UHGV virus genome: UHGV-2152132
Direction: 5' to 3' (one strand)
Length of the DNA: 18,425 bases
DNA from: a virus
A program made the position numbers and the translations under genes. The notes below the pieces were generated by a model that was given only the letters and a program-made list of their open reading frames with translations, was not told the DNA's origin and did not search any database. Shown in pieces: positions 1 to 16,741 of this stretch; within the stretch, counting starts at the first letter, position 1; each line of letters opens with the position of its first letter.

Positions 1-897
1 CTATGACTTGCTGTTTTCAGTAAGAGTCTTATCATCCAAAGAATTTATTCTAGAAATTCTTTTTAACTCATTAAGATAATCAACCTCGTTTTCTAAGAAC
101 CAATGAAGAACTTTAGAATTGCCAAGTAATTTATTAATATATGACTGGATTATAACGAATTTCAACATATCTGAACCATACTCGGTTTGAAGCTTTTTCG
201 TTTCTTCCGAAGTTGTTGCCATTTCTTGTTCCAGACGAAGTATGGTTTTTTTTATGTCCTTTTTATAGGGAGTGTTTTTCCCTTTATTTACTATCATCGA
301 TGCCGGTGTTGCATCCAAGATGCTCATTGCAAATTTTTTACTATAATTATCAAAATTAATCATTGTACCGACTGCTTCAATTTGGCGAATTGGCTTCATT
401 TTCCTCAAAACGTCAAATGTAGCCTTAGGTATAGGTTTATCAGAAAGTTTCGCAATTACACTTGAATCTATGCCGTTCATCACATTCGCTTTATCTTTTA
501 TGGCATCAACAGATATGCCCAAAGCAGCACTAAGTTTTTCAATTGATACTTTTGCCAGAGACTTAATTATCATTCTATGTTCTTCAACTACATTTATATG
601 ATTCACTTGTTTGTTAGGAGTGAAAGCATCATCTATGCTCGAAAGTATACATGGAGCTTTTTCTATACCTAAGTCTTTTAAAGCCTCAACCCTTAAATGG
701 CCATCAAGTATCTTAGTGACATCTTTATCTTTGTCATAGAATACTATTATTGGTTCAATAATACCTAAGCTTTCGATAGAGGTAACTATTTGATGATATT
801 TATGGCTTCGCTTTACGTTTTCTAATAATTCCTTAGATGGAATTAACTTATTAGTTTCCAGGTAAATAAAATTATCGCCAAAACGTATCTGAATCAT
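1..897 (-). CDS. ParB/Srx-fold (ParB N-terminal domain-like) protein, distal gene of AT-rich three-gene operon
   Basis: 298-aa ORF complete in window (stop at 1-3). ParB-box-like segment SIESLGIIEPIIVFYDKDKDVTKILDGHLRVEALKDLGIE. Start ATG overlaps the upstream gene stop (ATGA, 894-897); AAGAGG RBS about 7 nt upstream. Very low GC versus flanks. Family assignment is by motif, not search. Confidence 0.55.
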   Translation of the reverse strand: MIQIRFGDNFIYLETNKLIPSKELLENVKRSHKYHQIVTSIESLGIIEPIIVFYDKDKDVTKILDGHLRVEALKDLGIEKAPCILSSIDDAFTPNKQVNHINVVEEHRMIIKSLAKVSIEKLSAALGISVDAIKDKANVMNGIDSSVIAKLSDKPIPKATFDVLRKMKPIRQIEAVGTMINFDNYSKKFAMSILDATPASMIVNKGKNTPYKKDIKKTILRLEQEMATTSEETKKLQTEYGSDMLKFVIIQSYINKLLGNSKVLHWFLENEVDYLNELKRISRINSLDDKTLTENSKS

Positions 898-1790
898 TTT
901 AATACCTCTTTGTTTACTGGGGTTAATATCTGAGATGGTAGTTCTGAAAGATTCTCTTGTTCAAGTATATGTTGAAAGCTTTTATTCATCATTATGATGT
1001 TAAAAATCTCATTTACTATTAGTAGGTTGGTTTTTATGAATTTTGAGTTGTTATAAACAGATTTATGTTCAGCGATACTATTTTCATAAAGCTCAATCAA
1101 CTCCTCTGCAGTCATCCTTTTTGATGGTTTGTGATAATAAAATCCGGCTGCTTTTGCACCTTTATTCCCAACTGTTCTTTGATTTAGAATGTGTTTTATC
1201 TTTATAATGTCCCGACTTTTTATTAATTTTTTATCATATGCTTCGGTAAGAATATCTTGTGCTTCCTCAGTTTCACATCTTGCAAATTGCACTGCGAGAT
1301 ACAGAGGCAAATTACCCCGTTCGACTGCTGAGAGAAGTTTATGCTCTCCCTTATCAAGTAGCATATTAATACTGCTCACCCAGTTCGATGAATATCCAGT
1401 AATCTCACTTATTTCGGAGTCTGAAAGTCCTCTGATTTTCATGTCTTTAATCACCTGTAATAACTCATTAGAACGTGGTCTTCTCCTTGCAATGTTTTCA
1501 ACTAAACTCATAACGTAAGCATCTTCTTCTGATACATCTCTTATAATTGCTGGAATAATAGTTTCACCTAATGCAACGAGAGCCTCTATTCTCCCTTGAC
1601 CACAAATTAAAGCATATTTGAAATCGCCTTCATCAATAGCTCTTACGCTTATAGGCTTGCTTAATCCTCTTTTTTTTATGCTTTCCTTTATTTCTTCATG
1701 CACTACCTTATTTCTTGTTCGTGGGTTAAGAAATTTTATTTTTGCAATCTCAATTTGAATTATTGGGAATTCATTTTTTTCAGGCAGCAT
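894..1790 (-). CDS. ParB-like nuclease/partition-family protein (ParB N-terminal domain plus HTH-like segment)
   Basis: 298-aa ORF. ParB box II-like motif KYALICGQGRIEALVALGETIIPAIIRDVSEEDAYVMSLVENIARR, followed by HTH-like GLSDSEISEITGYSSNWVSSINML. GAGGGA RBS 5-6 nt upstream. First 11 nt overlap the end of the upstream recombinase gene. Confidence 0.6.
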   Translation of the reverse strand: MLPEKNEFPIIQIEIAKIKFLNPRTRNKVVHEEIKESIKKRGLSKPISVRAIDEGDFKYALICGQGRIEALVALGETIIPAIIRDVSEEDAYVMSLVENIARRRPRSNELLQVIKDMKIRGLSDSEISEITGYSSNWVSSINMLLDKGEHKLLSAVERGNLPLYLAVQFARCETEEAQDILTEAYDKKLIKSRDIIKIKHILNQRTVGNKGAKAAGFYYHKPSKRMTAEELIELYENSIAEHKSVYNNSKFIKTNLLIVNEIFNIIMMNKSFQHILEQENLSELPSQILTPVNKEVLK

Positions 1791-3336
1791 ATAGTTCCCT
1801 CACTTTCATGCGAGTAATAATTTGTAGAAGTTTATCAAGATTATCAAATCTATAGAGATCTAATCGAATGTTGTTTGTTTCCGTCATGCACATTTTATTA
1901 TATTCGTTTTCAATCTTTGGTATGATATAAAAATCAAGAGGTGAAATATTTTGTGAATTCATTCGTATAACAATTGTTATGTCTGCTTTCTGTGAGTTAT
2001 CAAACCGGACTTTCCATCTAAGTTTACCTGATTTCATATGTATGCATTTAGTAACAAGGACGGAAATTAAAAACTCATCATTGATGTAAAGCATTGGGGC
2101 ATATTTATACTCGTCTATATGACAGTTGCTTTTTAAAATTTCACCCTTAAAATCCTCAATTATCTCTGAGTAAAATGATCTTAGTGCTTCATTTATTTTG
2201 AGATAGCTGTAATCATGTTCTGGCTTATAACCAATCAAAGTATATGCTCTTAAAAGACCACCAAATCGGGTTCTATAAACAGAAGATGAAGGGCCTGTAT
2301 CATCTTCATCAATGATAAAGCCTGATAGTTTTCCATTAGATTCTAATTTTTGTTTTAGTTTTTCTAATAGATCTTCATTAGTCAAATGAATGGATCGGAG
2401 CTGAATTATTTCTTGAGCTTTATTGTATTTTTTCTTTGAAATAATAGGTTTATATGCCTTGTCACATCTAACCCATTCATGTTTGGGGTTTTTTACAAGC
2501 CTACTTTTTAATTTAGATGAGGTTTTGTTATATATGTTGTTTCCAATATATTTTTCATTTGTCAAAATTTGATGTATTTTTGCACGAGTCCATAATGTAC
2601 CATTTTCTGCAGGTATGTTCTGTTCATTTAATCTCTCAGCAATAATGAATTCTGGGACGTTATTATCTATAAAGAGATCATATATTCTATTTACAATTTT
2701 TATTTCATTTTTTGGTCCCGGAATTAATATTACCCTATCTGTTTGAATACTCTTTCTTTTGCGGAAACTCAATATTTCTTTAGCTATGCCATTTTCGTCT
2801 ACTAAAAGACGTCTCAGCCCATAACCAGCCATACCGCCTTGATGATAACCAAGCTTTATTAAATTTACTTGCCCTATAAATACCTTTTCAGATAGATTCC
2901 TGCTGTGATATGCAGCACTAGATCTTTTTATATTCAGTATAACAGAGGACTCTAAAGGGAAATCTTTAGTGGGTATAGGTTCGGAACAATATATAAGATC
3001 TACACCATTTCTCTCAAATAGAAAGGAATAATATGCCGCTTCATCACTATTTTGAAAACGACCAAAACGGCTCACATCATAAAATAATACAGCCTGTATA
3101 TCTATTTTCTTTTGTTCTACATCGCTAAGTAACTGCTGCAAAGAATGCCTGCCTACGATACTGACTCCGCTCTTACCTGAATCATCGTAGGTATAAGCGA
3201 TTTCCATATTGTTCTTTTCAGCATAATCTTTGATATATTCGGACTGATTATGTAAAGAATATTGCTGATGGTCGGTAGACATCCTCAAGTACTGCGCGAC
3301 CCTAACTCTATGATTTTTGTCATTTTCGCTAGCCAT
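1780..3336 (-). CDS. Large serine recombinase family protein (resolvase-type catalytic domain plus recombinase domain, long C-terminal extension)
   Basis: 518-aa ORF. N-terminal catalytic signature RVAQYLRMSTDHQ (Ser nucleophile context) and DDSGKSG; recombinase-domain-like GQVNLIKLGYHQGGMAGYGLRR. First gene of the operon, GAGG RBS upstream. AT-rich codon usage. Confidence 0.75.
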   Translation of the reverse strand: MASENDKNHRVRVAQYLRMSTDHQQYSLHNQSEYIKDYAEKNNMEIAYTYDDSGKSGVSIVGRHSLQQLLSDVEQKKIDIQAVLFYDVSRFGRFQNSDEAAYYSFLFERNGVDLIYCSEPIPTKDFPLESSVILNIKRSSAAYHSRNLSEKVFIGQVNLIKLGYHQGGMAGYGLRRLLVDENGIAKEILSFRKRKSIQTDRVILIPGPKNEIKIVNRIYDLFIDNNVPEFIIAERLNEQNIPAENGTLWTRAKIHQILTNEKYIGNNIYNKTSSKLKSRLVKNPKHEWVRCDKAYKPIISKKKYNKAQEIIQLRSIHLTNEDLLEKLKQKLESNGKLSGFIIDEDDTGPSSSVYRTRFGGLLRAYTLIGYKPEHDYSYLKINEALRSFYSEIIEDFKGEILKSNCHIDEYKYAPMLYINDEFLISVLVTKCIHMKSGKLRWKVRFDNSQKADITIVIRMNSQNISPLDFYIIPKIENEYNKMCMTETNNIRLDLYRFDNLDKLLQIITRMKVRELYAA

Positions 3337-3618
3337 GCACGAAACCTCATGGATGATTCAATACAATGTAGTGGATAAAATTGATCAAATTTTAACCGAA
3401 TTCAACTGTTTTATCATTGATTAGAGCGAATTTGGTAGATCTTCGAGGTGTATGATAATCGAGAAGAGATGTGAATTATTTAGCTGATATGACCGACAGC
3501 TTTCGTTATGTGGACTCAATGTCCCCATTTGTAAATGGCTATGCTTAGTCCACATAGGTTAATGGTGTGATTATTAATTCTTTAACTAAATCAAGATAGT
3601 TAATCCATCATGGGAGAG
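3337..3618 (-). promoter_or_regulatory. AT-rich leader/promoter region of the recombinase-ParB-ParB operon, containing a nested palindrome
   Basis: 282-bp non-coding gap between the integrase stop and the recombinase start. Perfect 9-bp inverted repeat ATGTGGACT (3508-3516) / AGTCCACAT (3547-3555) enclosing CCATTT-GT-AAATGG (3524-3537). No promoter hexamers confidently assigned. Confidence 0.35.
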
Positions 3619-4848
3619 TTATGCGGCAATAACTTTGCATTTTTGAGACGAAACATAGTCACTCCACCATTGCATGAGAACCACCCGTTCAGTGAGATAC
3701 TCTGCACGATTGTAGGCTGCAATTATTTCATCTTTCTTCGAGTGGGCAAGGGCGGCTTCTAAGACATCAGTCCTAAACTTGCCAGACTCCTCAGCAGCCG
3801 TTCTAGCAATGGATCGCATACCGTGAGCTACAAGCTCACCTCCGAAACCCATACGGATTATGGCCGCATTAGCTGTTTGTTCATGCATGTGATTGAGTGG
3901 AGCTTTGATACTGGGGAACACCCACTCTCTATGCCCGCTGATGACTTTCATTAAATCCAAAACTCGCAAAGCTTCTTTGCTCAGTGGAACTTTGTGAGGC
4001 TTCTTCATTTTCATAAACTCCGCCGGGATGTTCCACATGCCAGTTTCAATATCAATATCTGACCATCTTGTGCGAACAGCTTCACCTGGGCGAACCCATG
4101 TGAGAAGTTGCCACTCAATCAGTAGCCTTGTTTCCAAACGGATAGAAGCATTGTTTAGAGCAACCAAGAAGCGAGGGAGTTCGGAAGGGGGTAATGCTGG
4201 CATATTCTGTTTTTTTGGCTTGCTGAACCGTTGCCCCAGGTTGTCTGCCGGGTTGAATTCTATGAGTTCTTCTGTTGCTGCATAGCGGAAAATTTCATTC
4301 AGGCGGGATATGATGCGGCGAAGTGTTTCAAGGACACCTCGTTTTTCTATGGGTTCTAAATGCTGTTTAAGCATTTTAGGGCGAATCTCCTTAATTGGGG
4401 TATCACCCAATGTGGAAAAGATATTTCTCTCTAGGCTTCGCCAGATGTCGTTAGCATGATCTTGGGAGATGCCTGACGTTTTGACTTTCTCATCAAGCCA
4501 CTTCTTGGCTACTGCTTGAAATGTATGTTCCGTGGCATCTTTCAGTGCATTGGCTTTTTGGTTGTTATGAACTTGGGGGTCTATACCATTTGTAAGCAAC
4601 GACAAGTATTCATCACGTAAAGCTCGTGCCTTCGCAAGTGTAAGGTGAGGATAGGTTCCTAAGCTCACCTTAGTTCGCTTTTTGGTCACAGGCACTGCAT
4701 ATCTGAAATACCAATTTTTCTTCCCTCCCTTCGCCAGGGGAGCGATTCGCAACAGCAAACCATCGCCGTCAAAAAGGTTAACCTCTTTTTCGGCAGGTTT
4801 GGTGCTTTTGATTTCAGTGTCAGTGAGCTTCTTAGCGATTTTGGCCAT
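3619..4848 (-). CDS. P4-type (IntA/SlpA-like) tyrosine integrase
   Basis: ORF track gives 3619..4929 (436 aa). The probable true start is the internal Met of MAKIAKKLTDTEIKSTKP (about 4848), the typical P4-family integrase N-terminus. C-terminal catalytic residues: AHGMRSIARTAAE (H-x-x-R) and IIAAYNRAEY (Tyr nucleophile). Lies next to the ssrA 3'-end repeat, same orientation as ssrA. Confidence 0.85.
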   Translation of the reverse strand: MAKIAKKLTDTEIKSTKPAEKEVNLFDGDGLLLRIAPLAKGGKKNWYFRYAVPVTKKRTKVSLGTYPHLTLAKARALRDEYLSLLTNGIDPQVHNNQKANALKDATEHTFQAVAKKWLDEKVKTSGISQDHANDIWRSLERNIFSTLGDTPIKEIRPKMLKQHLEPIEKRGVLETLRRIISRLNEIFRYAATEELIEFNPADNLGQRFSKPKKQNMPALPPSELPRFLVALNNASIRLETRLLIEWQLLTWVRPGEAVRTRWSDIDIETGMWNIPAEFMKMKKPHKVPLSKEALRVLDLMKVISGHREWVFPSIKAPLNHMHEQTANAAIIRMGFGGELVAHGMRSIARTAAEESGKFRTDVLEAALAHSKKDEIIAAYNRAEYLTERVVLMQWWSDYVSSQKCKVIAA

Positions 4849-5144: not shown

Positions 5145-6404
5145 TTAACTCTCCGCCGCCAAATTGCCGCCATCAGGTAGATGCTCATGCTTCATCATTT
5201 GGTGGATAAGAACTTCTACTTTTCTGAAGGTCGTATTGTCATAGTACTCAACAAGTGATTCATCGAAATCCTCTATCCAACCTTTTGCTGGGCCATTTGT
5301 TTGATATCTGACGGCAGTTGGTGAGTGGAAGTTGGGAGTAGCCTTTAAAGTGCTAAACACAGCCCATGATACTGGGTTAGTCACTTTAAATATTCTCTTC
5401 AATTCAGGGCAGTACAACGTGTTTGGTACAGTTATTCGTTCCATTTTAGGGGGTAAGATTACATTAATACCGATGTCACTATCTTTTTGATTAAGTATTT
5501 TTGTCGAACGATACGATATTCCAGAAATATCCTTGTTGCTATCACTGCTAATCCATTGCATTAATAGGTTTGGAATAATGTATTCTTTGTGAAAATTTGC
5601 ATGTTCATGATCTTTTGTATAGTTACAGGCCAATACTAAAGGCCATGCGATTAGTTTTGAAACCTTATCATTAATCGGGTCTGAGAAATCACTATAATTT
5701 TCATTGTTGTATTCATCTATGCGTTCAGGCTCAAATGAAAATGAATGCTCACTTGGAGTGGAACGTAGTGCTGACGTTAGGTTGTATCCGAGGTCTAGTA
5801 TTCTAATTTGTGATGATTCGTCTTCAGTAATAAATGATGATATATACAGCTTATCGAAATCTGGTTTTCCCATCTCTTGCCAGCAAACAAATATTGATGT
5901 CCCAAGATATAGACATGGTAAACCTGAAACTGAGAAGCGTTGTGCGCTTACCAAATGTCTTTGACTAAAAGGAATGTGGAATAATTCTTCTCTATTTTTT
6001 AGTATGTTTTCACTTTTCCTAACCCGAAATAACGGAGTTCGTCTATTACAAAGTTTTGTTAACGGAACCGTCATTTGATAAATGTGGTTCTTCATTGCTG
6101 GTGAACCTATTATAGCTTGGTTGAAAGTATTATAGGCTTCTTTAATATTACCGTTAAGATAATGGGTTAACGTTTCAGATATTTTATTGGAGAATGTTGT
6201 GATTGAAATCGATCTTTTTTTTACCTCTTTTATTGTTTCGTTGTCTGGATAGTCCTTTCTTATTTTATCAATAGCTTCAAGATAACAATCAATCCTGTTT
6301 TTAAAGTTGGATACAATGTCGCCATTGGCCTTGAATGGGGGTTGAAGTAGTTCATATTGTAATAATGAATCTGATATTTCTTTCAGTTCTGAATATTTGC
6401 GCAT
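5145..6404 (-). CDS. RES-domain-like protein (putative NAD+-targeting toxin/abortive-infection-type effector); prophage cargo between att and int
   Basis: 419-aa ORF, AT-rich relative to neighbouring phage genes. Central segment LFRVRKSENILKNREELFHIPFSQRHLVSAQRFSVSGLPCLYLGTSIFVCWQEMGKP resembles the RES-domain core (R ... G.P.LY..S....E). Starts 10 nt after the integrase stop, weak RBS, so probably co-transcribed with int. Domain call by pattern only. Confidence 0.45.
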   Translation of the reverse strand: MRKYSELKEISDSLLQYELLQPPFKANGDIVSNFKNRIDCYLEAIDKIRKDYPDNETIKEVKKRSISITTFSNKISETLTHYLNGNIKEAYNTFNQAIIGSPAMKNHIYQMTVPLTKLCNRRTPLFRVRKSENILKNREELFHIPFSQRHLVSAQRFSVSGLPCLYLGTSIFVCWQEMGKPDFDKLYISSFITEDESSQIRILDLGYNLTSALRSTPSEHSFSFEPERIDEYNNENYSDFSDPINDKVSKLIAWPLVLACNYTKDHEHANFHKEYIIPNLLMQWISSDSNKDISGISYRSTKILNQKDSDIGINVILPPKMERITVPNTLYCPELKRIFKVTNPVSWAVFSTLKATPNFHSPTAVRYQTNGPAKGWIEDFDESLVEYYDNTTFRKVEVLIHQMMKHEHLPDGGNLAAES

Positions 6405-6414
6405 GAGAATTATT

Positions 6415-7431
6415 TCAATTAAGGTTGATTAATGGATTCTTAGTCACAGCATCTTCGAGATGTTCTGGAGAAAAATGTGCATATATCATTGTCATTTTAA
6501 TATCAGTGTGACCCAAGATTTCTTTAAGTACCAGTATGTTTCCGCCGTTCATCATAAAGTGACTGGCGAATGTATGACGCAGAACGTGGGTACATTGACC
6601 TTCCGGCAGCTCAATACCGGCCCTCTTTACTGCTCGTTCAAAAGCTTTTCTGCATGGAGTGAATAATTTTCCTCTCTTTTTGGGGAGTTCGTCATACAGA
6701 TCCTGTGATATTGGCACTGTTCTGTTTTTCTTGCCCTTAGTCTTGGTGTAAGTGATGCGGTATTTTGACAACTGGTGTCCCTGTAGGTTTTCGGCTTCAC
6801 TCCATCGCGCGCCGGTGGCCAGGCAGATTTTTGTAATCAAAAGCAGGCTGGGGCTTTGAGAATCAGCGCAGGCATCCAGCAGACGTTTAATTTCTTCCGG
6901 GGTCAGGAACGCCAGTTCACCCTCAGCAATTTTAAATGTTGGCAGCCCGGCAAGTGGGTTGGGGGCTGACCAATGGCCCAGCTTTTTCAGTGTACCAAAT
7001 ACCGATGATAGGTTACGCTGTTCAAGGTTTACCGTGCGGGGCTTAACGGGCGACATAAGCGTGCCATCTTCATTTCGCACTTCACCTTTTAGCCGTGCTT
7101 CGCGGTATTTCGTAAAGTCACCGGCTGTCAGTTCTGAGGCGATGGGATCGCCTAGACCATTACAGATAATTTTAAGTTTCGCCATGAGGCGCTTGGGGTC
7201 TGCGAGTGTCTGACCGTACAGGGAATACCAAAGCTCAATTAATTCTGATAGGCGTCGCCGATCATCCTTTTCTCCTAACCACGGTTTTTTGTTCACTTCT
7301 TCCATTGTGAAGCTTTCAAACGCAATAGCTTCGCCTTTGGTAGCAAATTGCTTACGCACGCGCTTGCCATTGCGTCCATTGGGATAGCACTCACACAACC
7401 ATTTTCCGTTCGGCTGTTTTCTGATGGTCAT
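6415..7431 (-). CDS. int: P2/186-family tyrosine integrase
   Basis: 338-aa ORF with catalytic motifs ATGARWSEA (Arg), HVLRHTFASH (His-x-x-Arg) and MIYAHF (Tyr). Position next to the CI-type repressor is typical of P2-like phages. Confidence 0.88.
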   Translation of the reverse strand: MTIRKQPNGKWLCECYPNGRNGKRVRKQFATKGEAIAFESFTMEEVNKKPWLGEKDDRRRLSELIELWYSLYGQTLADPKRLMAKLKIICNGLGDPIASELTAGDFTKYREARLKGEVRNEDGTLMSPVKPRTVNLEQRNLSSVFGTLKKLGHWSAPNPLAGLPTFKIAEGELAFLTPEEIKRLLDACADSQSPSLLLITKICLATGARWSEAENLQGHQLSKYRITYTKTKGKKNRTVPISQDLYDELPKKRGKLFTPCRKAFERAVKRAGIELPEGQCTHVLRHTFASHFMMNGGNILVLKEILGHTDIKMTMIYAHFSPEHLEDAVTKNPLINLN

Positions 7432-7432
7432 T

Positions 7433-8065
7433 TCAAAGGCTCTTAATGATTTTCAGTGCGCGGCCTACTACCTCAATGTCATCCAGGCCGCACTCAAACG
7501 ATGAATCATCCTGATGCACTACTAATTTGTTTCCCGGGAGTCGAGTCAATTTAACGATGCTTTTTATCCCGTCGATATCGACTAACCACATACCATTTAC
7601 TGGTGGTGTTTGGTTGCGATCTATTAAATAAGAATCACCAGAAGTAGTCACCAGCAGTAGGTTGCTTGAGTCTGAGGGGAGTATGCTGCTATCAATGATT
7701 GCTTTTCCAGCATCGACCAATAAACCACCGTTGAGAGTCGCCTTGTCAATTTCAGGAGATACTAGTTCAGAAAGAGGTACAACCTTGCTGGAGTTCACGG
7801 AATTGATATTTTTTTTAGGTTCAATGTTTGGACCTGGCTCCCCCTGTCCGGTGGTTAGCCACAGTAAAGAAACTCCTGTTTCCAAGGCGCACTGAATCAC
7901 CCACTCTGCAGGAAAACTATCTCTTAAGTATCTGTTTGCCATGGTGCTTTTTGATGCGCCTAAGTGATCGCAAAGTTGCTGTCTGGACTTGAAATCATAG
8001 GCTGCCATTAGTCTATGGATAGCCTCTCTTCCCCCTGTATTCTCTCCAACCTTTACCTGTATCAT
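7433..8065 (-). CDS. 186-type CI immunity repressor
   Basis: 210-aa ORF. N-terminal HTH region SRQQLCDHLGASKSTMANRYLRD and the segment QCALETGVSLLWLTTGQGEP, characteristic of phage 186/PSP3/Fels-2 CI. Divergent from the apl/cII-like genes across an operator-bearing gap. Confidence 0.75.
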   Translation of the reverse strand: MIQVKVGENTGGREAIHRLMAAYDFKSRQQLCDHLGASKSTMANRYLRDSFPAEWVIQCALETGVSLLWLTTGQGEPGPNIEPKKNINSVNSSKVVPLSELVSPEIDKATLNGGLLVDAGKAIIDSSILPSDSSNLLLVTTSGDSYLIDRNQTPPVNGMWLVDIDGIKSIVKLTRLPGNKLVVHQDDSSFECGLDDIEVVGRALKIIKSL

Positions 8066-8184
8066 TTTTTAATCCTGTTGACGTATCAAATATTGGATCG
8101 TAGTATCTCGATGTATCAAATATTGAATCAAGTAAAACGAGATAAAACGACGTAAACCAAACCTTAATCGGGAGATACTGCACT
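8066..8184. promoter_or_regulatory. Divergent switch region (pR/pL-like) with direct-repeat operator candidates
   Basis: 17-bp direct repeat GTATCAAATATTG(G/A)ATC at 8083-8099 and 8113-8129, 30 bp centre to centre. Rightward sigma70-like promoter TTGACG (8077-8082), 18-bp spacer, TAGTAT (8101-8106); the first repeat overlaps its spacer. Confidence 0.5.
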
Positions 8185-8427
8185 ATGAGCACTGATATTT
8201 CAATTCGTGTACCAAAAGAGATGGCTACGCCTGCAGAGTTCGCGGAATGGGAAGGTATCTCCCGCGGCTCCGTGTATCAAAAAATTCACCATGGTCAGCT
8301 TGCTAAATACATGGTCAAGAAAGAAAAAAACAAAGGCCGCGTAAGCCTGCGTTATTTAATGTACAAAACCGATCAGGTCCGTGAATCCCTCGGTCATTCC
8401 AACTTCCGCGTCATTGTTGGTAAGTAA
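8185..8427 (+). CDS. Apl/Cox-like small HTH protein (excisionase/transcriptional regulator)
   Basis: 80-aa ORF, first gene rightward from the switch region. HTH-like ATPAEFAEWEGISRGSVYQKIHHGQL. GGAG RBS about 10 nt upstream. Confidence 0.5.
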   Translation: MSTDISIRVPKEMATPAEFAEWEGISRGSVYQKIHHGQLAKYMVKKEKNKGRVSLRYLMYKTDQVRESLGHSNFRVIVGK

Positions 8428-8459
8428 GTTCAATTATGAGAACTTTCTAAGGGGGTAGC

Positions 8460-8855
8460 ATGTTTGATTATAAGATTTCCAAACACCCGCATTTTGATGA
8501 AGCCTGTAGAGCTTTTGCACTTCGTCACAATATGGCGAAGCTGGCAGAACGTGCAGGAATGAATGTCCAGACTCTGCGAAACAAACTCAACCCAGATCAA
8601 CCGCATCAGCTCAATGCGCCAGATATCTGGCTACTTACCGATCTGACGGAAGATTCAACGCTGGTAGACGGTTTTCTGGCACAGATTCACTGCCTGCCAT
8701 GTGTACCGATTAATGAGGTGGCAAAAGAGAAACTGCCACATTACGTCATGAGTGCAACCGCAGAGATCGGGCGTGTTGCTGCAGGTGCGGTATCCGTTCC
8801 GACGTTCCTCGTTGCCGCTTCTCCCAAACCAACGTTTAAGAAAATGCAGAGGTAA
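8460..8855 (+). CDS. CII-like phage regulatory protein (186 CII family), possibly C-terminally altered
   Basis: 131-aa ORF. N-terminal MFDYKISKHPHFDEACRAFALRHNMAKLAERAGMNVQTLRNKLNPDQ resembles 186-type CII. AAGGGGG RBS. Gene ends 38 bp before the invertase, where the normal early-region genes are missing. Confidence 0.55.
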   Translation: MFDYKISKHPHFDEACRAFALRHNMAKLAERAGMNVQTLRNKLNPDQPHQLNAPDIWLLTDLTEDSTLVDGFLAQIHCLPCVPINEVAKEKLPHYVMSATAEIGRVAAGAVSVPTFLVAASPKPTFKKMQR

Positions 8856-8899
8856 CAGCTAACTGGCATCATCTCCGGTTTTTATTCAGGGGGATGATC

Positions 8900-9466
8900 A
8901 TGCTTATTGGCTATGTACGCGTGTCAACAAATGACCAGAACACCGATTTGCAACGTAATGCACTGAACTGCGCGGGATGTGAGCAGATTTTTGAGGACAA
9001 AATCAGTGGCACTAAGTCCGACAGACCGGGGCTGAAAAAACTACTCAGGACACTATCGGCAGGAGACACGCTGGTTGTCTGGAAGCTGGACAGGTTGGGG
9101 CGCAGTATGCGGCATCTTGTTACGCTGATAGAAGAGTTGCGCCAGCGTGGTGTGAATTTCAGAAGCCTGACTGACAGTATTGATACCAGTACCCCAATGG
9201 GCCGTTTCTTTTTTCATGTCATGGGTGCCCTGGCTGAAATGGAACGCGAACTGATAGTTGAACGTACCAGGGCAGGGCTGGCTGCAGCTCGTGCCAAAGG
9301 CAGAGTAGGTGGACGCCGTCCTAAGTTGACCACCGAACAGTGGGCACAGATTGGGCGTTTACTCGAGGCCGGAGAATCAAGACAGCGTATTGCACTGATT
9401 TTTGATGTAGGCGTTTCTACCATTTATAGAAAATTTCCGGCAAATAAGATCAATGAATCCCCCTGA
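8900..9466 (+). CDS. Site-specific DNA invertase, Gin/Pin/Cin/Hin family (small serine recombinase)
   Basis: Starts MLIGYVRVSTNDQNTDLQRNAL...GDTLVVWKLDRLGRSM...SPMGRFFFHVMGALAEMERELI, the canonical invertase sequence, with C-terminal HTH. ORF track starts at 8894 (MIM...); ATG 8900 has better spacing from AGGGGG (8888-8893). Confidence 0.92.
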   Translation: MLIGYVRVSTNDQNTDLQRNALNCAGCEQIFEDKISGTKSDRPGLKKLLRTLSAGDTLVVWKLDRLGRSMRHLVTLIEELRQRGVNFRSLTDSIDTSTPMGRFFFHVMGALAEMERELIVERTRAGLAAARAKGRVGGRRPKLTTEQWAQIGRLLEAGESRQRIALIFDVGVSTIYRKFPANKINESP

Positions 9467-9514
9467 ATCAGCATTATGTTGATTATCCCTGCAAGCAGAC
9501 AAATACCGTTATTT

Positions 9515-9532
9515 TGTGTGAATAACGACACA
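9515..9532 (+). promoter_or_regulatory. P2-type late promoter activator site (TGT-N12-ACA dyad) upstream of FI
   Basis: TGT (9515-9517), 12 nt, ACA (9530-9532), inside a near-perfect dyad TTGTGTG...GACACAA, about 85 bp upstream of the FI start. P2-family late promoters carry this Ogr-dependent element near -55. Confidence 0.5.
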
Positions 9533-9608
9533 ACTGCGCTTAGCTGTTTGTCAGGCACAATCACTTCAACATAGGGCGAAGCCTAATCCAATCAGGAGGT
9601 TCGCCACT

Positions 9609-10781
9609 ATGGCTCAGGATTACCACCACGGGGTGCGCGTTGTTGAAGTCAACGAAGGCACCCGATCTATTACCACGGTGAGCACCGCCATCGTGGGTAT
9701 GGTCTGCACGGGCGATGATGCCGATGCAAAAATGTTTCCTCTTAATAAACCCGTGCTGATCACTGATGTGCTGACTGCCAGCGGTAAAGCGGGTGAGTCA
9801 GGTACTCTGGCCCGTTCGCTGGATGCCATCGCTGACCAGGCAAAACCCGTGACCATTGTTGTGCGTGTGCCGCAGGGTGAAACGGAAGACGAAACCACGA
9901 CCAATATCATCGGCGCAGTGACTGCTGAAGGTAAAAAAACAGGTATGAAAGCCCTGTTATCTGCCCAGTCACAGCTCGGCGTTAAACCGCGCATTCTCGG
10001 CGTGCCAGGCCACGACACCAAGGCGGTAGCTACTGAGTTGCTGAGCGTGGCGCAAAGCCTGCGTGGATTTGCTTACCTGTCAGCGTATGGCTGCAAGACA
10101 GTGCAGGAGGCGATCACTTACCGCGAAAACTTCAGCCAGCGCGAAGGGATGCTGATCTGGCCTGACTTTACTGGCTGGGACACGGTGCTGAATGCCGAAG
10201 CAACGGCATATGCCACCGCCCGTGCGCTTGGTCTGCGCGCCAAAATTGACGAGCAGACCGGATGGCACAAAAGCCTGTCCAACGTGGGCGTGAACGGTGT
10301 CACCGGAATTTCTGCAGATGTGTTCTGGGATCTGCAGGACCCGGCAACCGATGCAGGTCTGCTGAACCAGAACGACGTCACCACGCTTGTGCGTAAAGAC
10401 GGTTTCCGCTTCTGGGGTTCCCGCTGCCTGAGTGATGACCCGCTCTTTGCCTTCGAAAACTACACCCGCACGGCGCAGGTGCTGATGGACACGATGGCAG
10501 AAGCACACATGTGGGCGGTGGATAAACCGCTTAACCCGTCGCTGGCCCGCGACATTATCGAAGGTATCCGCGCCAAAATGCGCAGCCTGGTCAGTCAGGG
10601 CTATCTCATTGGTGGTGATTGCTGGCTGGATGAGTCGGTGAACGACAAAGACACGCTGAAAGCCGGAAAACTCACCATCGACTACGACTACACGCCAGTG
10701 CCGCCACTTGAAAACCTGATGCTGCGTCAGCGCATCACCGATCAGTACCTGGTGAATTTCGCCAGCCAGGTCAGCGCGTAA
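9609..10781 (+). CDS. FI: Contractile tail sheath protein (P2 gpFI homolog)
   Basis: 390-aa ORF starting [40 protein letters not shown], typical gpFI N-terminus. CAGGAGG RBS. Followed by FII-E-T-U-D in P2 order. Confidence 0.9.
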
Positions 10782-10790
10782 GGGGACAAC

Positions 10791-11306
10791 ATGGCTTTAC
10801 CACGCAAATTAAAACACCTGAACCTGTTTAACGACGGGAACAACTGGCAGGGGATCGTTGAATCGCTGACGCTGCCGAAATTTACCCGCAAATATGAGAA
10901 GTATCGCGGCGGCGGAATGCCGGGTGCGGTGGATGTGGATCTGGGGCTTGATGACAGTGCGCTGGACACAGAATTTTCCATTGGTGGTACTGAATTGCTG
11001 CTGTTTAAACAGATGGGTAAAGCCACGGTGGATGGCATCCAGCTGCGCTTTACCGGCTCTATTCAGCGTGACGATACCGGGGAAGTGCAGGCCGTGGAGC
11101 TTGTCGTGCGTGGACGTCACAAAGAAGTGGATTCCGGCGAGTGGAAGACGGGCGAAAGCAACACCACCAAAGTGACCAGTACCAACAGCTACGCGAAGCT
11201 GACCATCAATGGTGAGGTGCTCTATGAAGTGGACCTTATCAACATGGTGGAAATTGTGGACGGTGTGGACCTGATGGAAGCGCACCGCAACGCCCTCGGC
11301 CTCTGA
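10791..11306 (+). CDS. FII: Tail tube protein (P2 gpFII homolog)
   Basis: 171-aa ORF, MALPRKLKHLNLFNDGNNWQG...RFTGSIQRDDTGE, immediately after FI. Confidence 0.9.
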   Translation: MALPRKLKHLNLFNDGNNWQGIVESLTLPKFTRKYEKYRGGGMPGAVDVDLGLDDSALDTEFSIGGTELLLFKQMGKATVDGIQLRFTGSIQRDDTGEVQAVELVVRGRHKEVDSGEWKTGESNTTKVTSTNSYAKLTINGEVLYEVDLINMVEIVDGVDLMEAHRNALGL

Positions 11307-11360
11307 TATATCTGAACGGCGCGGGATACCGCGCCAGAACCCAATTGACAGGACAGCAAA

Positions 11361-11663
11361 ATGAGCGATAAGCAGACTGAAAAGACCATTCAACTGGATA
11401 CCCCCATCAAGCGCGGTAAAACAGAAATCACCGAAATTGTGCTGCGTAAACCGCAGTCCGGTGCGCTGCGCGGTACACGCCTGCAGGCCATTATGGATAT
11501 GGATGTAAACGCGATGATGACCGTGATCCCCCGCATCTCCAGTCCGGCACTGACTGCACAGGAAATTGCAGAGATGGACCCGGCAGATCTCACTGCCATG
11601 TCGGTTGAGGTTGTCACTTTTTTGTTGAAGAAGTCGGTGCTTGCCGGTTTACCGACAGCCTGA
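11361..11663 (+). CDS. E: Tail assembly chaperone gpE (unshifted product)
   Basis: 100-aa ORF between FII and T. Contains the slippery heptamer T TTT TTG near its 3' end. Confidence 0.8.
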   Translation: MSDKQTEKTIQLDTPIKRGKTEITEIVLRKPQSGALRGTRLQAIMDMDVNAMMTVIPRISSPALTAQEIAEMDPADLTAMSVEVVTFLLKKSVLAGLPTA

Positions 11664-11797
11664 CGGTTGACGATCTGGTGGCAGATATCGCCACCATTTT
11701 TCACTGGCCGCCATCCGTTACTGACGTTATGCCGCTGACCGAAGTGCTGGAATGGCGGTATAAAGCGATTCAGAGAAGCGGGGCCAACGATGAGTGA
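11361..11797 (+). CDS. Tail assembly chaperone E+E' (predicted -1 programmed frameshift product)
   Basis: Slippery site TTTTTTG at about 11618-11624. The -1 frame is open from there to TGA at 11795-11797, giving an extension ...DDLVADIATIFHWPPSVTDVMPLTEVLEWRYKAIQRSGANDE that overlaps the T start by 8 nt. Confidence 0.6.
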
Positions 11798-14700
11798 TAA
11801 CAACCTGCGTCTGCAGGTCATTCTTAATGCGGTTGACAAGCTCACCCGCCCATTTCGATCTGCGCAGGCCAGTTCAAGAGAACTGGCTGCTGCTGTCAAA
11901 AAATCCCGCGATGCAATAAAGCAGCTTGATCAGGCCGGGAGCAGTCTGGACAGCTTCCGAAAGCTGCAGGCAGAAAATCAGAAATTAGGCGACAGGCTGA
12001 ACTATGCCCGCCAGCGTGCAAATTTGCTCAGTCAGGAACTGGGAGCGATGGGGCCGCCTTCGCAACGTCAGGTTGTTGCTCTGGGCCGTCAACGGCTGGC
12101 TGTTCAGCGCCTGGAAGAACGCCAGAAAAAGCTGCAGCAGCAGACGGCGCTTGTGCGTGCTGAACTGTACCGGGCGGGAATTTCTGCGAAAGACGATGCG
12201 GGAGCAACTGCCCGTTTAGCCCGTGAAACATCACGTTATAACCAGGAACTTTCGAAACAGGAGGCGCGGCTGAAGCGACTGGGGGAAGCTCAGCGCAGGA
12301 TGAATGCAGCGCGTGCCAGTTATGCCCGTTCGCTGGAGGTGCGTGATCGTATTGCAGGTGCCGGAGCCACCACCACGGCTGCAGGGCTGGCAATGGGTGC
12401 GCCAGTGATGGCGGCAGTAAAAAGCTATACCAGCATGGAAGATGCCATGAAAGGTGTGGCAAAGCAGGTCAATGGTCTGCGTGACGATAATGGCAACCGC
12501 ACTGCACGTTTTTATGAAATGCAGGATGCCATCAAGGCTGCCAGCGAACAGTTGCCGATGGAAAACGGTGCGGTGGACTTCGCTGCACTGGTTGAAGGTG
12601 GTGCGCGCATGAACGTCGCAAACCCTGACGACAGCTGGGAAGATCAGAAACGTGACCTGCTGGCCTTCGCCAGTACGGCAGCAAAGGCGGCAACAGCCTT
12701 TGAGCTGCCAGCGGATGAACTGTCAGAAAGTCTGGGGAAAATCGCCCAGCTCTACAAAATCCCCACCCGCAATATTGAACAGCTCGGTGATGCGCTGAAC
12801 TATCTGGATGATAACGCCATGTCGAAAGGGGCAGACATCATTGATGTGATGCAACGTCTGGGCGGTGTGGCTGACCGTCTGGATTATCGTAAAGCGGCGG
12901 CGCTGGGTTCCACCTTCCTGACACTGGGCGCTGCGCCAGAGGTTGCAGCCAGTGCAGCAAACGCGATGGTGCGTGAATTGTCCATTGCCACCATGCAAAG
13001 CAAGAGTTTCTTTGAAGGGATGAATCTGCTGAAACTCAATCCTGAAGTGATTGAAAAGCAGATGACGAAGGATGCGATGGGAACCATCCAGCGCGTGCTG
13101 GAGAAGGTAAACGCGCTGCCGCAGGACAAGCGCCTGTCTGCCATGACTATGTTGTTTGGTAAAGAGTTTGGCGATGACGCGGCGAAACTGGCAAACAACC
13201 TGCCGGAACTGCAGCGTCAGTTAAAACTGACAGCGGGCAATGATGCGCTTGGCTCCATGCAAAAAGAATCCGACATTAACAAGGATTCACTTTCTGCGCA
13301 GTGGTTGCTGGTCAAAACCGGAGCGCAGAACACCTTCAGCAGCCTGGGCGAAACGCTGCGCCAGCCGCTGATGGATATTCTGTACACGGTGAAAAGCGTC
13401 ACGGGGGCGTTGCGTCGCTGGGTGGAAGCTAACCCGGAACTGACAGGCACACTGATGAAAGCATCGGCTGTTGTGGCTGCGGTTACCGTCGGCCTCGGCA
13501 CCTTAGCGGTGGCGCTGGCTGCAGTGCTGGGGCCGCTGGCAGTGATCCGTCTGGGATTCTCTGTGTTGGGTATCAAAACGTTATCTTCCGTTACGGCAGC
13601 AGTAACTCGAACCAGCAGCGCGTTGTCCTGGCTGGCTGGCGCACCACTGGCACTGCTGCGACGCGGGCTTGCTTCATCGGGCAACGCCGCAGGTTTACTT
13701 ACTGCGCCGTTGTCGTCTTTGCGCCGCACGGCATCACTGACGGGAAATGTCCTGAAAACTGTAGCAGGTGCGCCGGTTGCACTTTTGCGGTCTGGATTAT
13801 CCGGTTTACGTGCTGTTGCTGTGATGTTTATGAATCCTCTGGCGGTACTGCGCGGTGGACTGGCCGCCGCAGGCACGGTGCTGCGAGTACTGGCATCTGG
13901 TCCACTGGCGATGCTGCGCGTTGCCCTGTATGCCATATCTGGTCTGTTAGGTGCTCTGCTCAGTCCGATAGGTCTTGTGGTTACTGCACTGGCGGGCGTG
14001 GCGCTGGTTGTCTGGAAATACTGGCAACCCATCACCGCATTTCTCGGTGGCGTGGTGGAAGGATTCAAAGCGGCGGCAGGTCCCATCAGTGCAGCGTTCG
14101 AACCGCTTAAGCCCGTGTTCCAGTGGATTGGCGACAAAGTGCAGGCGCTGTGGGGCTGGTTTACTGATCTGCTGACGCCCGTTAAGTCGACCTCTGCCGA
14201 ACTGCAGAGCGCAGCGGCAATGGGGCGGCGATTCGGGGAGGCACTGGCGGAAGGGCTGAATATGGTCATGCATCCGCTGGACTCCCTGAAATCCGGCGTT
14301 TCCTGGTTGCTGGAGAAGCTCGGCATTGTCAGTAAAGAGGCCGCAAAGGCAAAACTGCCGGAAAGCGTGACGCGTCAGCAACCTGCGACGGTGAATGCAG
14401 ACGGTAAAGTGATGATGCCATCGGGTGGTTTTCCATCATGGGGATATGGCTTTGCGGGGATGTATGACAGCGGCGGGTATATCCCGCGCGGGCAGTTTGG
14501 CATCGTCGGTGAAAACGGGCCGGAAATTGTTAACGGCCCGGCAAATGTGACCAGCCGGAGAAATACAGCTGCACTGGCTGCCGTTGTTGCCGGAATGATG
14601 GGCGTTGCTGCCGCGCCAGCAGAGCTTCCACCGTTGCACCCCTTGGCACTTCCCGCGAAAGGTGGAGAAGCAATTGTGAGTCGCGCAGCCACTGTGCCAC

Positions 14701-14867
14701 TCGTTCAACGGATTGAGGCACCGACGCAGATCATCATTCAGACGCAGCCAGGACAAAGTGCGCAGGATATTGCGCGGGAGGTGGCACGCCAGCTTGATGA
14801 ACGTGAACGCAGGCTGAAGGCAAAAGCCAGGAGTAACTACAGCGATCAGGGGGGATACGACGCATGA
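11790..14867 (+). CDS. T: Tail tape measure protein (P2 gpT homolog)
   Basis: 1025-aa ORF in the expected position. N-terminal coiled-coil-like region, central Ala/Gly/Leu-rich hydrophobic region with tandem PLAxLRxGL-type repeats, C-terminal Gly-rich region. Confidence 0.9.
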   Translation: MSDNNLRLQVILNAVDKLTRPFRSAQASSRELAAAVKKSRDAIKQLDQAGSSLDSFRKLQAENQKLGDRLNYARQRANLLSQELGAMGPPSQRQVVALGRQRLAVQRLEERQKKLQQQTALVRAELYRAGISAKDDAGATARLARETSRYNQELSKQEARLKRLGEAQRRMNAARASYARSLEVRDRIAGAGATTTAAGLAMGAPVMAAVKSYTSMEDAMKGVAKQVNGLRDDNGNRTARFYEMQDAIKAASEQLPMENGAVDFAALVEGGARMNVANPDDSWEDQKRDLLAFASTAAKAATAFELPADELSESLGKIAQLYKIPTRNIEQLGDALNYLDDNAMSKGADIIDVMQRLGGVADRLDYRKAAALGSTFLTLGAAPEVAASAANAMVRELSIATMQSKSFFEGMNLLKLNPEVIEKQMTKDAMGTIQRVLEKVNALPQDKRLSAMTMLFGKEFGDDAAKLANNLPELQRQLKLTAGNDALGSMQKESDINKDSLSAQWLLVKTGAQNTFSSLGETLRQPLMDILYTVKSVTGALRRWVEANPELTGTLMKASAVVAAVTVGLGTLAVALAAVLGPLAVIRLGFSVLGIKTLSSVTAAVTRTSSALSWLAGAPLALLRRGLASSGNAAGLLTAPLSSLRRTASLTGNVLKTVAGAPVALLRSGLSGLRAVAVMFMNPLAVLRGGLAAAGTVLRVLASGPLAMLRVALYAISGLLGALLSPIGLVVTALAGVALVVWKYWQPITAFLGGVVEGFKAAAGPISAAFEPLKPVFQWIGDKVQALWGWFTDLLTPVKSTSAELQSAAAMGRRFGEALAEGLNMVMHPLDSLKSGVSWLLEKLGIVSKEAAKAKLPESVTRQQPATVNADGKVMMPSGGFPSWGYGFAGMYDSGGYIPRGQFGIVGENGPEIVNGPANVTSRRNTAALAAVVAGMMGVAAAPAELPPLHPLALPAKGGEAIVSRAATVPLVQRIEAPTQIIIQTQPGQSAQDIAREVARQLDERERRLKAKARSNYSDQGGYDA

Positions 14868-15349
14868 TGATGGTGCTGGGATTGTACGTGTTTATGCTGC
14901 GCACCGTTCCGTATCAGGAACTGCAGTATCAACGCAGCTGGCGACATGCGGCAAACAGTCGGGTAAACCGACGTCCGTCCACGCAGTTTCTGGGACCGGA
15001 AAACGACATGCTGACGCTTTCCGGTGTTCTTATGCCGGAAATAACAGGCGGCAGGCTGTCGTTGCTGGCACTGGAGCAGATGGCAGAACAGGGGAAAGCA
15101 TGGCCCCTGATTGAAGGCAGCGGCACGATTTACGGCATGTATGTGATTGAGGGACTGAATCAGACTAAAACGGAGTTTTTCCGCGACGGTATGCCGCGCC
15201 GGATTGAGTTCACCCTGTCGCTCAAACGAGTGGATGAATCCCTGTCCGATATGTTCGGTGATCTCAGTGCGCAACTGAATAATCTGCAGGACACGGCAAC
15301 GTCTGCCTTAAGCGATATCAGTAAAACGGTGGGAGGGCTGCTGTCGTGA
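14864..15349 (+). CDS. U: Tail protein gpU homolog
   Basis: 161-aa ORF, MMMVLGLYVFMLRTVPYQELQYQRSWRH..., ATGA-type overlap with the T stop. Confidence 0.88.
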   Translation: MMMVLGLYVFMLRTVPYQELQYQRSWRHAANSRVNRRPSTQFLGPENDMLTLSGVLMPEITGGRLSLLALEQMAEQGKAWPLIEGSGTIYGMYVIEGLNQTKTEFFRDGMPRRIEFTLSLKRVDESLSDMFGDLSAQLNNLQDTATSALSDISKTVGGLLS

Positions 15350-16446: not shown

Positions 16447-16514
16447 AGTGTTCTCAATATTGATATTTTGTGTATCATTACAATGATTCTGATAGCAAAG
16501 GTAGGGATCTGGAT

Positions 16515-16733
16515 ATGATGAATTGTCCAAAGTGTGGTCATGCGGCACACACAAGGAGCAGTTTTCAAGTAACTGAAAGCACCAAAGAGCGTTACTGCCA
16601 GTGCCAAAATATTAACTGCGGGAGCACTTTTGTTACCCATGAAACAGTGGTCCGGTTTATTGTGACACCCGCACTGATTGCTACTGCTCCTCCACATCCA
16701 TTGCCAGGTGGTCAGGGGCATATGAATTTTTGA
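16515..16733 (+). CDS. ogr: Ogr/Delta-family zinc-finger late transcription activator
   Basis: MNCPKCGHAAHTRSSFQVTESTKERYCQCQNINCGSTFVTHETVVRFIVTP, with the four-Cys C-x2-C ... C-x4-C arrangement of P2 Ogr. ORF track starts at 16470; the ATG at 16515 (MMNCPKC) fits Ogr length. Confidence 0.85.
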   Translation: MMNCPKCGHAAHTRSSFQVTESTKERYCQCQNINCGSTFVTHETVVRFIVTPALIATAPPHPLPGGQGHMNF

Positions 16734-16741
16734 GAAAGAGA

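Follow-up and report, generated by a model that had tools for sequence, protein, structure and literature searches.

The window analyzed here is a stretch of 18,425 nucleotides (nt) from the viral genome UHGV-2152132, and its left end is occupied by three minus-strand genes (genes 1, 2 and 3, together called the trio below) that encode an atypical serine recombinase of 518 amino acids (aa) and two ParB-like proteins of 298 aa each (Table 1). The trio is translationally coupled: genes 1 and 2 overlap by 11 nt (1780–1790), genes 2 and 3 overlap in the sequence ATGA (894–897), and a GAGG-type ribosome-binding site lies 7–8 nt ahead of the start codon of all three genes. Positions 1–3 of the window are the stop codon of gene 3. 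This layout agrees with a preliminary description of the window; its coordinates for the three open reading frames (ORFs) were reconfirmed, and the protein motifs quoted in it were all found in the translations. The block is also AT-rich, as had been claimed, with a GC content of 0.328 (33%) at 1–3336 compared with 0.458 in the neighboring tyrosine integrase gene and 0.54 in the prophage DNA further right.

The gene 1 protein contains a Resolvase domain (PF00239, E = 9e-22) and, after the alpha-E helix, a Recombinase domain (PF07508, E = 6e-22), and its catalytic set (Y16, R18, S20, Q24, D87, R90, G92, R93 and E99) is invariant in 38 diverse homologs, in line with the earlier assignment of gene 1 as a serine recombinase. 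An AlphaFold2 model of the protein (predicted local distance difference test score of 86) can be superposed on the integrases SPbeta SprA, Bxb1 and PhiC31 over the first ∼330 residues only, and a Foldseek comparison with large serine recombinases gave E values down to 1e-15 over ∼330 residues. Past residue 312 there is no Pfam match, and the zinc-ribbon/coiled-coil region of phage integrases was found neither by Pfam nor by structural comparison, so gene 1 lacks a defining feature of the large serine integrases. With the enzymes of this group (SPbeta SprA, Bxb1, PhiC31, TP901-1 and TnpX) it shares the serine nucleophile, the Arg/Asp set, the alpha-E helix and PF07508, whereas their zinc ribbon and coiled coil, which serve in att binding and directionality, are replaced in gene 1 by a helical segment and a beta-rich domain. 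In the model, this C-terminal region matches PD-(D/E)xK nucleases, including MepB, archaeal Hjc resolvases and several restriction enzymes. The residues of the nuclease-like domain that are conserved in the family are W441, D452, R458, D468 and P473; two acidic residues are present, and the canonical lysine of PD-(D/E)xK enzymes is not among the conserved positions. As modeled, the C-terminal domain has a restriction-endonuclease-like fold, which may either cut DNA or just bind it. Also in contrast to the large serine recombinases, no attL/attR sites were found at the trio, and gene 1 is always followed by two ParB-like genes.

In the gene 2 protein, the N-terminal nucleotide-switch domain is followed by a helix-turn-helix region in the center and by a C-terminal part that resembles RepB. 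Pfam assigns ParB_N to residues 11–100 (E = 1.6e-13) and RepB (PF07506) to residues 102–214, NCBIfam TIGR00180 matches above its cutoff, and residues 8–211 have sequence matches to the solved structures of Spo0J, ParB, Noc and KorB, covering their nucleotide-binding and helix-turn-helix domains. Within the family of ParB CTPases (ParB/Spo0J, Noc, KorB and VirB), gene 2 thus aligns to ParB, Noc and KorB and keeps motifs of the GxxR/ENxxR type. The family motifs LNPRxRN, CGQGR and ENxARR are maintained in 68 orthologs, a pattern that, when compared with the box II and box III motifs of ParB, is compatible with nucleotide binding. In gene 3, RepB (PF07506) spans residues 98–270 (E = 6e-24), the ParB_N match is weak (25.8 bits, the curated cutoff being 26.3), and NCBIfam gives sub-threshold matches to ParB, Noc and SerK. 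Its motif LLDGHxR is the DGHxR variant of the Srx/SerK-like branch of the ParB family and is kept in 64 orthologs. The two proteins can be aligned over the ParB core only (30% identity over 63 aa, E = 0.001), but the positions of the alignment are collinear, the proteins are of equal length and both have the PF07506 region, which makes them distant paralogs. Since orthologs of gene 2 match gene 2 only and those of gene 3 match essentially gene 3 only (one weak cross-match), the duplication must be ancient. The ParB folds that had been proposed for both proteins from short motifs are therefore supported by Pfam, the helix-turn-helix of gene 2 by the alignment to solved structures, and the paralogy by the collinear ParB core. 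The PHROG families of genes 2 and 3 have no function on record. At one locus (L006, NZ_CP110863.1), genes 2 and 3 form a single ORF of 594 aa; this record is labeled as plasmid plas1 of Lactiplantibacillus plantarum, yet it has 64.6% GC and a trio of proteobacterial type, so that contamination or misassignment is probable.

A search with gene 1 against 1.84 billion representative proteins returned 1351 clusters at E < 1e-30, and the 150 matches listed were mostly full-length (∼520 aa) with identities of 32–51%. Among the testable loci, i.e. those with enough sequence downstream to check genes 2 and 3, the order gene 1–gene 2–gene 3 was kept in 135 of 140. A species-level genome scan gave at least 586 confirmed matches; with one genome taken per species, the gene 1 homolog was present in all 80 fetched loci and genes 2 and 3 followed it in order, usually overlapping, in 70 of the 71 that were testable. 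The order was also maintained in 55 of 58 and in 6 of 6 loci of the IMG/VR viral collection. The hosts include Alpha-, Beta- and Gammaproteobacteria, Desulfosarcina, Myxococcales, Bdellovibrionaceae and one metagenome-assembled genome of Acidobacteriota, so that the phyla Proteobacteria, Myxococcota, Bdellovibrionota and Acidobacteriota are spanned. Because the unit is strictly conserved and translationally coupled across several phyla, the three proteins most likely work together. The view that the trio is a horizontally acquired functional module, put forward in the preliminary description, is supported, and the module is moreover self-contained, as shown by this synteny, by the sharp ends of the units that carry it and by ratios of nonsynonymous to synonymous substitution rates (dN/dS) of 0.06–0.12.

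Plasmids carry the trio in 71 of 72,556 records (0.1%), among them pAtC58 of Agrobacterium fabrum C58 and a megaplasmid of P. aeruginosa; on a Piscinibacter plasmid, it directly follows the tniQ gene of a Tn7-like element. A prophage-borne origin was considered and rejected, as no verified phage genome among 50,697 records contains the trio and the one full-length match is an unverified faecal contig of 7.5 kb. Genes in the neighborhood encode ParDE, AbiEi/AbiEii, Fic, PIN, WYL and SNF2-like helicase proteins, a DUF6361/PLD-like/helicase set and insertion sequence (IS) elements, contexts which are typical of cargo or defence islands. A 12-kb segment (8396–20261 of locus L025, also present in L040 and L045) is shared with 92–97% nt identity by a genome bin labeled Halothiobacillus and two Rhodobacterales; it comprises ParDE, a helix-turn-helix gene, the trio, the RNA described below and the DUF6361/PLD-like/helicase three-gene set, and in L025 it is bordered by transposases of the IS3 and IS66 families.

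The preliminary description had allowed for further components beyond the left edge of the window, and in relatives such components exist, as an RNA after gene 3 and also as a small regulator gene upstream of gene 1. At least 47 relatives, Paracoccus and Pseudolabrys among the hosts, have a conserved element on the gene 3 strand. In 45 of the 47 loci its start is 2–104 nt past the stop codon of gene 3; in the remaining two, it lies 3.9 kb downstream (L078) or the end of gene 3 is miscalled (L080). Its core of ∼130 nt is conserved beyond the proteins, being near-identical between loci whose genes have less than 80% nt identity. In an alignment of 45 distinct copies, 93% of the cells hold standard pairs, compared with 28–43% when the pairing partners are slid, and compensatory double changes occur at 21 of 35 pairs, compared with 4–12 in the slid controls; none of 500 shuffles reached the observed values. 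The structure is specific to one strand through abundant G-U pairs. On the basis of the pairing, the covariation and this strand specificity, the element is a structured RNA of the sense strand. Rfam gave no match at gathering thresholds in eight loci and none at E ≤ 10 in a 421-nt region, and ARAGORN was negative as well, so a tRNA, a tmRNA and known RNA families were dismissed as its identity. When metagenomes were scanned with a 32-nt motif of the RNA alone, at least 120 matches were obtained; among the listed matches with at least 400 nt of upstream sequence, 65 of 68 had a gene 3 homolog that ends 93–160 nt ahead of the motif, and on every contig long enough to show it, genes 2 and 1 lie upstream of gene 3. 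The RNA is thus almost exclusively linked to the trio. In Rhodobacterales, the RNA copies are followed by a terminator-like hairpin, and a comparison with the flanking 20 kb for a possible guide function revealed no systematic 10-mer identity or complementarity.

A clade of Betaproteobacteria has another conserved region of ∼190 nt after gene 3, with compensatory pairs and with no apparent sequence similarity to the ∼130-nt RNA. The end of this region coincides exactly with the sharp right edge of a shared 5.5-kb unit that consists of Fic, a Zn-ribbon gene and the trio. Yet another clade of Betaproteobacteria (loci L073, L079, L114, L130, L133, L135, L137 and L138) has no RNA at this position but a conserved protein-coding gene that directly follows gene 3. 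Applied to the E. coli lineage, a covariance model of the ∼130-nt RNA gave no match in 1.68 Mb with default filters and only chance-level matches, none of them next to gene 3, with the filters off; the ∼190-nt region was likewise not detected in this lineage. Neither the leader nor the downstream sequence of E. coli has an unusual folding energy (z about −0.65), a test that has little power since the genuine RNA is not thermodynamically exceptional either. About 50 nt past the gene 3 stop codon, and no more, are common to the E. coli island variants. In an enterobacterial variant from IMG/VR, six tandem copies of TATGGTT stand right after the gene 3 stop codon (L100, 13334–13380). On the other side of the trio, upstream of gene 1, 34 loci have a divergent gene for a ∼130-aa protein with a helix-turn-helix signature and 14 loci a co-oriented gene for a Cys-rich basic protein of ∼148 aa. 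Neither of these small genes is found in E. coli, where a leader occupies the position.

This leader contains a promoter-like site (3417–3389, promoter scan) and a 50-bp imperfect palindrome at 3507–3556, TATGTGGACT..CCATTTacAAATGG..AGTCCACATA, in which TATGTGGACT and AGTCCACATA are the outer arms, CCATTT-ac-AAATGG is the inner part and the right arm is variable among close relatives. By its sequence, the palindrome could be an operator or a recombinase site; in strain MLI105, an IS1 junction falls inside it. The leader is part of the trio-linked lineage, since in integrases with 78–84% identity to that of the window the homology breaks off at the stop codon. The integrase itself has the Arm-DNA-bind_3, Phage_int_M and Phage_integrase domains of the P4/CP4-57-type architecture.

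In E. coli, the trio occurs in 660 of 5426 complete genomes (12%), always in single copy and always on the chromosome, and the carriers include BL21(DE3), REL606 and E. coli C, whereas K-12 lacks it. It is intact in more than 600 of them, with occasional frameshifts and partial deletions. Integrase alleles of at least 95% identity were found in ∼629 genomes, and within Enterobacteriaceae the P4-type integrase is always alongside the trio, both having diverged together. The dN/dS values within Enterobacteriaceae are 0.12 for gene 1 and 0.06 for each of genes 2 and 3, which indicates strong purifying selection. In the window, a deleted P2-like prophage (6415 to ∼16750) is inserted between ssrA and the older integrase–trio island. 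This prophage is absent from BL21(DE3), REL606, C41/C43, T7 Express and E. coli C, in which the order is ssrA, integrase, trio, ∼340 bp, IS1 and glaH, so that the BL21-type island is a 5-kb stump cut by IS1. Fuller islands continue with UvrA-like and ThiF genes and a methyltransferase in Cronobacter, and with TIGR04141, HxsABCD and a relaxase in strain AST85. A sister ssrA island, with an integrase of 79% identity, has a three-component ABC system and a SIR2-family gene in the same slot. In our reading, the trio is a DNA-manipulation module borne as cargo by the ssrA island, and is neither its integrase nor a partition system. The preliminary description had placed it in the cargo hotspot of a P4 satellite, and of this the variable cargo slot beside the integrase family is borne out by the sister island, whereas the satellite itself is not: none of the P4 core genes (psu, delta, sid, alpha primase and epsilon) is annotated in BL21, FDAARGOS_1250, AST85 or ETEC4088, a negative that is based on annotation only and not on dedicated P4 profiles, and none of the Pfam families of the Cronobacter island points to a P4 core gene.

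Table 1. Positions of the trio, of neighboring features of the window and of the RNA elements found in relatives
Feature	Position	Strand	Evidence or remark
Gene 1, serine recombinase, 518 aa	1780..3336	minus	ORF and Pfam
Gene 1 catalytic domain (PF00239)	residues 14–152; nt 3297–2881		Pfam
Gene 1 Recombinase domain (PF07508)	residues 210–312; nt 2709–2401		Pfam
Gene 1 atypical C-terminal region	residues 316–518; nt 2391–1783		Helical segment and beta-rich PD-(D/E)xK-like fold (model)
Gene 2, ParB-type, 298 aa	894..1790	minus	Pfam ParB_N and RepB, NCBIfam TIGR00180, structure-sequence matches, 68-ortholog profile
Gene 3, ParB/Srx-type, 298 aa	1..897	minus	Pfam, NCBIfam (sub-threshold), 64-ortholog profile, comparison with gene 2
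Leader of the trio, 282 nt	3337..3618	minus	From integrase stop codon to gene 1
Tyrosine integrase, P4/CP4-57-type	3619..4848	minus	Pfam; RefSeq annotation of the identical gene in BL21
ssrA	17366–17728		Window is E. coli DNA
∼130-nt RNA, examples in relatives	L025:13359–13487; L104:10880–11008; L161:5760–5894		After gene 3 stop codon
∼190-nt region, betaproteobacterial clade	L021:9115–9318; L046:13333–13536; L066:13334–13537; five IMG/VR loci		After gene 3

We tentatively interpret the trio as a system of conflict between hosts and mobile elements in which a nucleotide-gated ParB clamp licenses an atypical serine recombinase, a reading to which we give a probability of roughly 35%. The gene 2 and gene 3 proteins would assemble into a hetero-oligomeric, nucleotide-gated DNA clamp, to which gene 2 would contribute its helix-turn-helix and the GxxR and ENxxR nucleotide-switch motifs, and gene 3 the DGHxR nucleotide-binding motif. 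The clamp would recognize, or load on, particular DNA and would then recruit the gene 1 protein and license it either to recombine this DNA by breakage and rejoining or just to break it. In many relatives, the structured RNA after gene 3 and the small upstream regulator would modulate this activity. Judged from genomic context, the favored role would be the exclusion of, or defence against, incoming DNA. Points in favor of this reading are the conservation and coupling of the three genes, the record in which genes 2 and 3 are one ORF, the invariant catalytic residues, the PD-(D/E)xK-like fold in the position of the zinc ribbon, the ParB switch motifs of gene 2, the purifying selection that persists although the BL21-type island is an immobile stump, the cargo- or defence-type contexts, the single copy in E. 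coli, the rarity on plasmids, the absence from verified phage genomes and the lack of a ParA-like neighbor. As the preliminary description had supposed, the gene set corresponds to no named system: NCBIfam gave no naming match (the matches are generic or below cutoff) and the full-text literature contained no description of it that we could find.

Several observations weigh against the proposed clamp and its defensive role. In PADLOC-DB 2.0, genes 1 and 2 have no match, and the only match of gene 3 is to a type II methyltransferase model, at its ParB-like N-terminus. Intact copies of the trio are present in the strains E. coli B, BL21 and C, all of them broadly permissive for phages, so any defence would have to be narrow, silenced or aimed beyond the common coliphages. 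Nor is defence obviously in need of a recombinase in which every catalytic residue is conserved. No binding or loading site was identified near the trio; the perfect palindromes upstream of gene 1 are lineage-specific and none is common to the loci. Finally, in four lineages the module lies between diverged direct repeats (72–88% nt identity) that derive from the 3′ end of the gene upstream, and these repeats together with the sharp unit ends fit an insertion cassette at least as well.

Such a cassette would be a self-inserting hitch-hiker with gene 1 as its own integrase or transposase and with the ParB-like pair and, where present, the RNA as accessory factors, whose roles would be architectural, in the control of directionality or in the upkeep of the excised circle. 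Its insertion sites would be inside or beside the 3′ ends of genes, such as integrase and tniQ, that belong to other mobile elements, and it would bring a replacement gene end. We regard this as a close rival, only slightly less probable than the clamp. Over its catalytic and recombinase domains, gene 1 is homologous to the large serine integrases, with the catalytic residues intact, and units of 4–5.5 kb with sharp, reproducible ends are found in unrelated contexts, the right end (...CAGCGGCAC) being identical in three loci. The tblastx comparison by which diverged flanking repeats were sought is noisy in GC-rich genomes, but four lineages are clear: in E. coli AST85 and ETEC4088, int is repeated over 262–333 bp with 79–84% identity (L090 and L089, both 14661–14970), a Tn7-like element of Paracoccus (L052) has a tniQ repeat of 242 bp with 88% identity, a Parvibaculum genome (L042) has a repeat of a helix-turn-helix gene, and an Accumulibacter contig (L074) has a short repeat. 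Such repeats could have arisen when the module inserted together with a surrogate gene end, or when tandem islands recombined. A tyrosine integrase lies within 4 kb of the trio in only ∼11 of 150 non-enterobacterial loci, more than 90% being without one. The trio is also often at the edge of predicted proviruses, and in several assemblies it is alone on a contig of 3–6 kb. The IMG/VR provirus edges are, however, probably set at integrase-like genes by the geNomad pipeline, so that the edge position is probably a product of boundary-calling, and the short contigs have no terminal overlap indicative of a circle. In the 660 E. coli genomes, moreover, the trio is in single copy at the same locus, and one relocated fragment moved with its flanks. 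An empty site was not found in E. coli: the 61 genomes with both the integrase remnant and TIGR04141 all seem to represent the variant that carries the trio as well, and no match showed an intact second integrase at that site. Three independent junction pairs share no target, target-site duplication or terminal repeats, and in its three contexts the 5.5-kb unit has sharp ends, no target-site duplication and no common target. Exact direct or inverted repeats of at least 11 nt within 700 bp on each side of ∼70 loci were scattered chance matches with no shared att-like site. Examined for the attL/attR sites of a mobile-element end, the trio has sharp ends and repeats in four lineages, but it is present once per genome and no att sequence is common to the loci. 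The strong purifying selection on an apparently immobile copy points to the host or the island as the level on which selection acts. The earlier view that the serine recombinase is unlikely to be the island integrase holds only locally; the scarcity of tyrosine integrases near the trio outside Enterobacteriaceae and the repeats in four lineages keep the self-inserting cassette a serious contender.

Other readings find less room beside the clamp. The trio could serve the maintenance of its carrier, by resolving multimers or cointegrates, controlling excision or ensuring segregation of the excised island or plasmid, and the pairing of a resolvase-family enzyme with ParB-family DNA-binding proteins does recall the resolvase-plus-partition cassettes of plasmids. 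The trio occurs on large plasmids (pAtC58 and the P. aeruginosa megaplasmid), directly adjoins mobility genes of islands and Tn7-like elements, and in Enterobacteriaceae is inherited with the integrase as one unit. This role is nevertheless unlikely: most loci have no integrase or replication genes nearby, the trio is not enriched on plasmids (0.1% of records), and selection persists in the 5-kb stump, which can hardly be thought to excise and replicate. A ParA partner was found neither in the window nor in annotated relatives, the motif KGGxGK[ST] being present in 0 of 702 neighboring ORFs, and no repeated res- or parS-like sites were found; the search for parS-type sites gave no palindrome common to the loci, and in E. 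coli the imperfect 50-bp one of the leader. In contrast to ParABS, the trio has no ParA, no recognized parS and no plasmid enrichment, and pairs two diverged paralogs with a recombinase; it is not a partition system. A still slimmer chance is that the trio and the structured RNA form a ribonucleoprotein machine for DNA recombination or targeting, in which ParB clamp and RNA together would position or license the recombinase that lacks a zinc ribbon; the E. coli copy would then be a version whose RNA was lost or has diverged beyond detection. That the trio is a functionless, decaying remnant, or a simple DNA-inversion switch for phase variation, is effectively excluded. The island of the laboratory strains is truncated by IS1 and occasional frameshifts and partial deletions exist, but dN/dS values of 0.06–0.12, more than 600 intact genomes and the conservation of the unit across phyla are at odds with decay, and no inverted repeats flank the module or a neighboring segment as an inversion switch would have them.

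Comparison with characterized systems shows partial resemblances. IS607 and IS200/605 (serine-recombinase TnpA with TnpB and omega RNA) and IS110 (bridge RNA) are likewise recombinase units with a conserved structured RNA at one end, but the trio has no TnpB, IscB or DEDD recombinase, and its RNA is not complementary to the local flanks; in Rhodobacterales the RNA is followed by the terminator-like hairpin instead of a flank-derived guide, and it was not found in the E. coli lineage. XisF of Anabaena, also a large serine recombinase, depends on the accessory proteins XisH and XisI and excises a defined developmental element. The trio similarly consists of a recombinase and two small co-encoded proteins, but the accessory families are unrelated and no such developmental element is evident here. 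The resolvase/res modules of Tn3, Sin and RP4 ParA combine a small resolvase that has a C-terminal helix-turn-helix with an adjacent res site of repeated dimer-binding subsites, whereas gene 1 encodes 518 aa with a recombinase domain, and no repeated subsites of the res type were found in the flanks of the trio. TIGR-TasA loci are operonized with a ParB-like gene, tasParB, and so represent a ParB-like and RNA-dependent DNA-binding module on mobile elements (PMC12045711); they differ from the trio in their Nop-domain Tas partner, in the tandem guide array of their RNA and in having no recombinase. The trio is therefore outside the large serine integrases, ParABS, the known defence systems and the known RNA families, as for each of them a defining feature was looked for and is lacking.

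The trio joins a serine recombinase to ParB nucleotide switches in an arrangement that is alien to the known biology of both families, and its relatives carry a previously uncatalogued structured RNA. The trio may be a defence or exclusion system, an RNA-assisted recombinase or a new type of insertion cassette directed at genes that belong to other mobile elements; whichever of the readings holds, the mechanism would be a new one in mobile DNA and would possibly offer a new recombinase scaffold for genome engineering. Should the ribonucleoprotein reading be true and the RNA provide specificity, the gene 1 protein would be the first RNA-dependent recombinase of the resolvase type. BL21(DE3), REL606 and E. 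coli C are among the strains used most widely in laboratories and in production, and their possession of the conserved operon makes it genetically testable at once.

The P2-like remnant of the window (6415–16750) keeps int, the CI repressor, a cox-like gene and a Hin-type invertase (8894–9466), as well as the tail sheath, tube, tape-measure, gpU, gpD and ogr-like genes; head and replication genes are not apparent in it. Between its P2-type integrase and the older island lies an AT-rich ORF of 419 aa on the minus strand (5145–6404, GC 0.36), which matches only PHROG families that have no function assigned and, very weakly, RES. The corresponding slot next to the P2-type integrase in FDAARGOS_1250 holds an annotated anti-phage dCTP deaminase, which suggests that the segment 5145–6404 is a slot beside int in which P2 carries cargo or defence genes.

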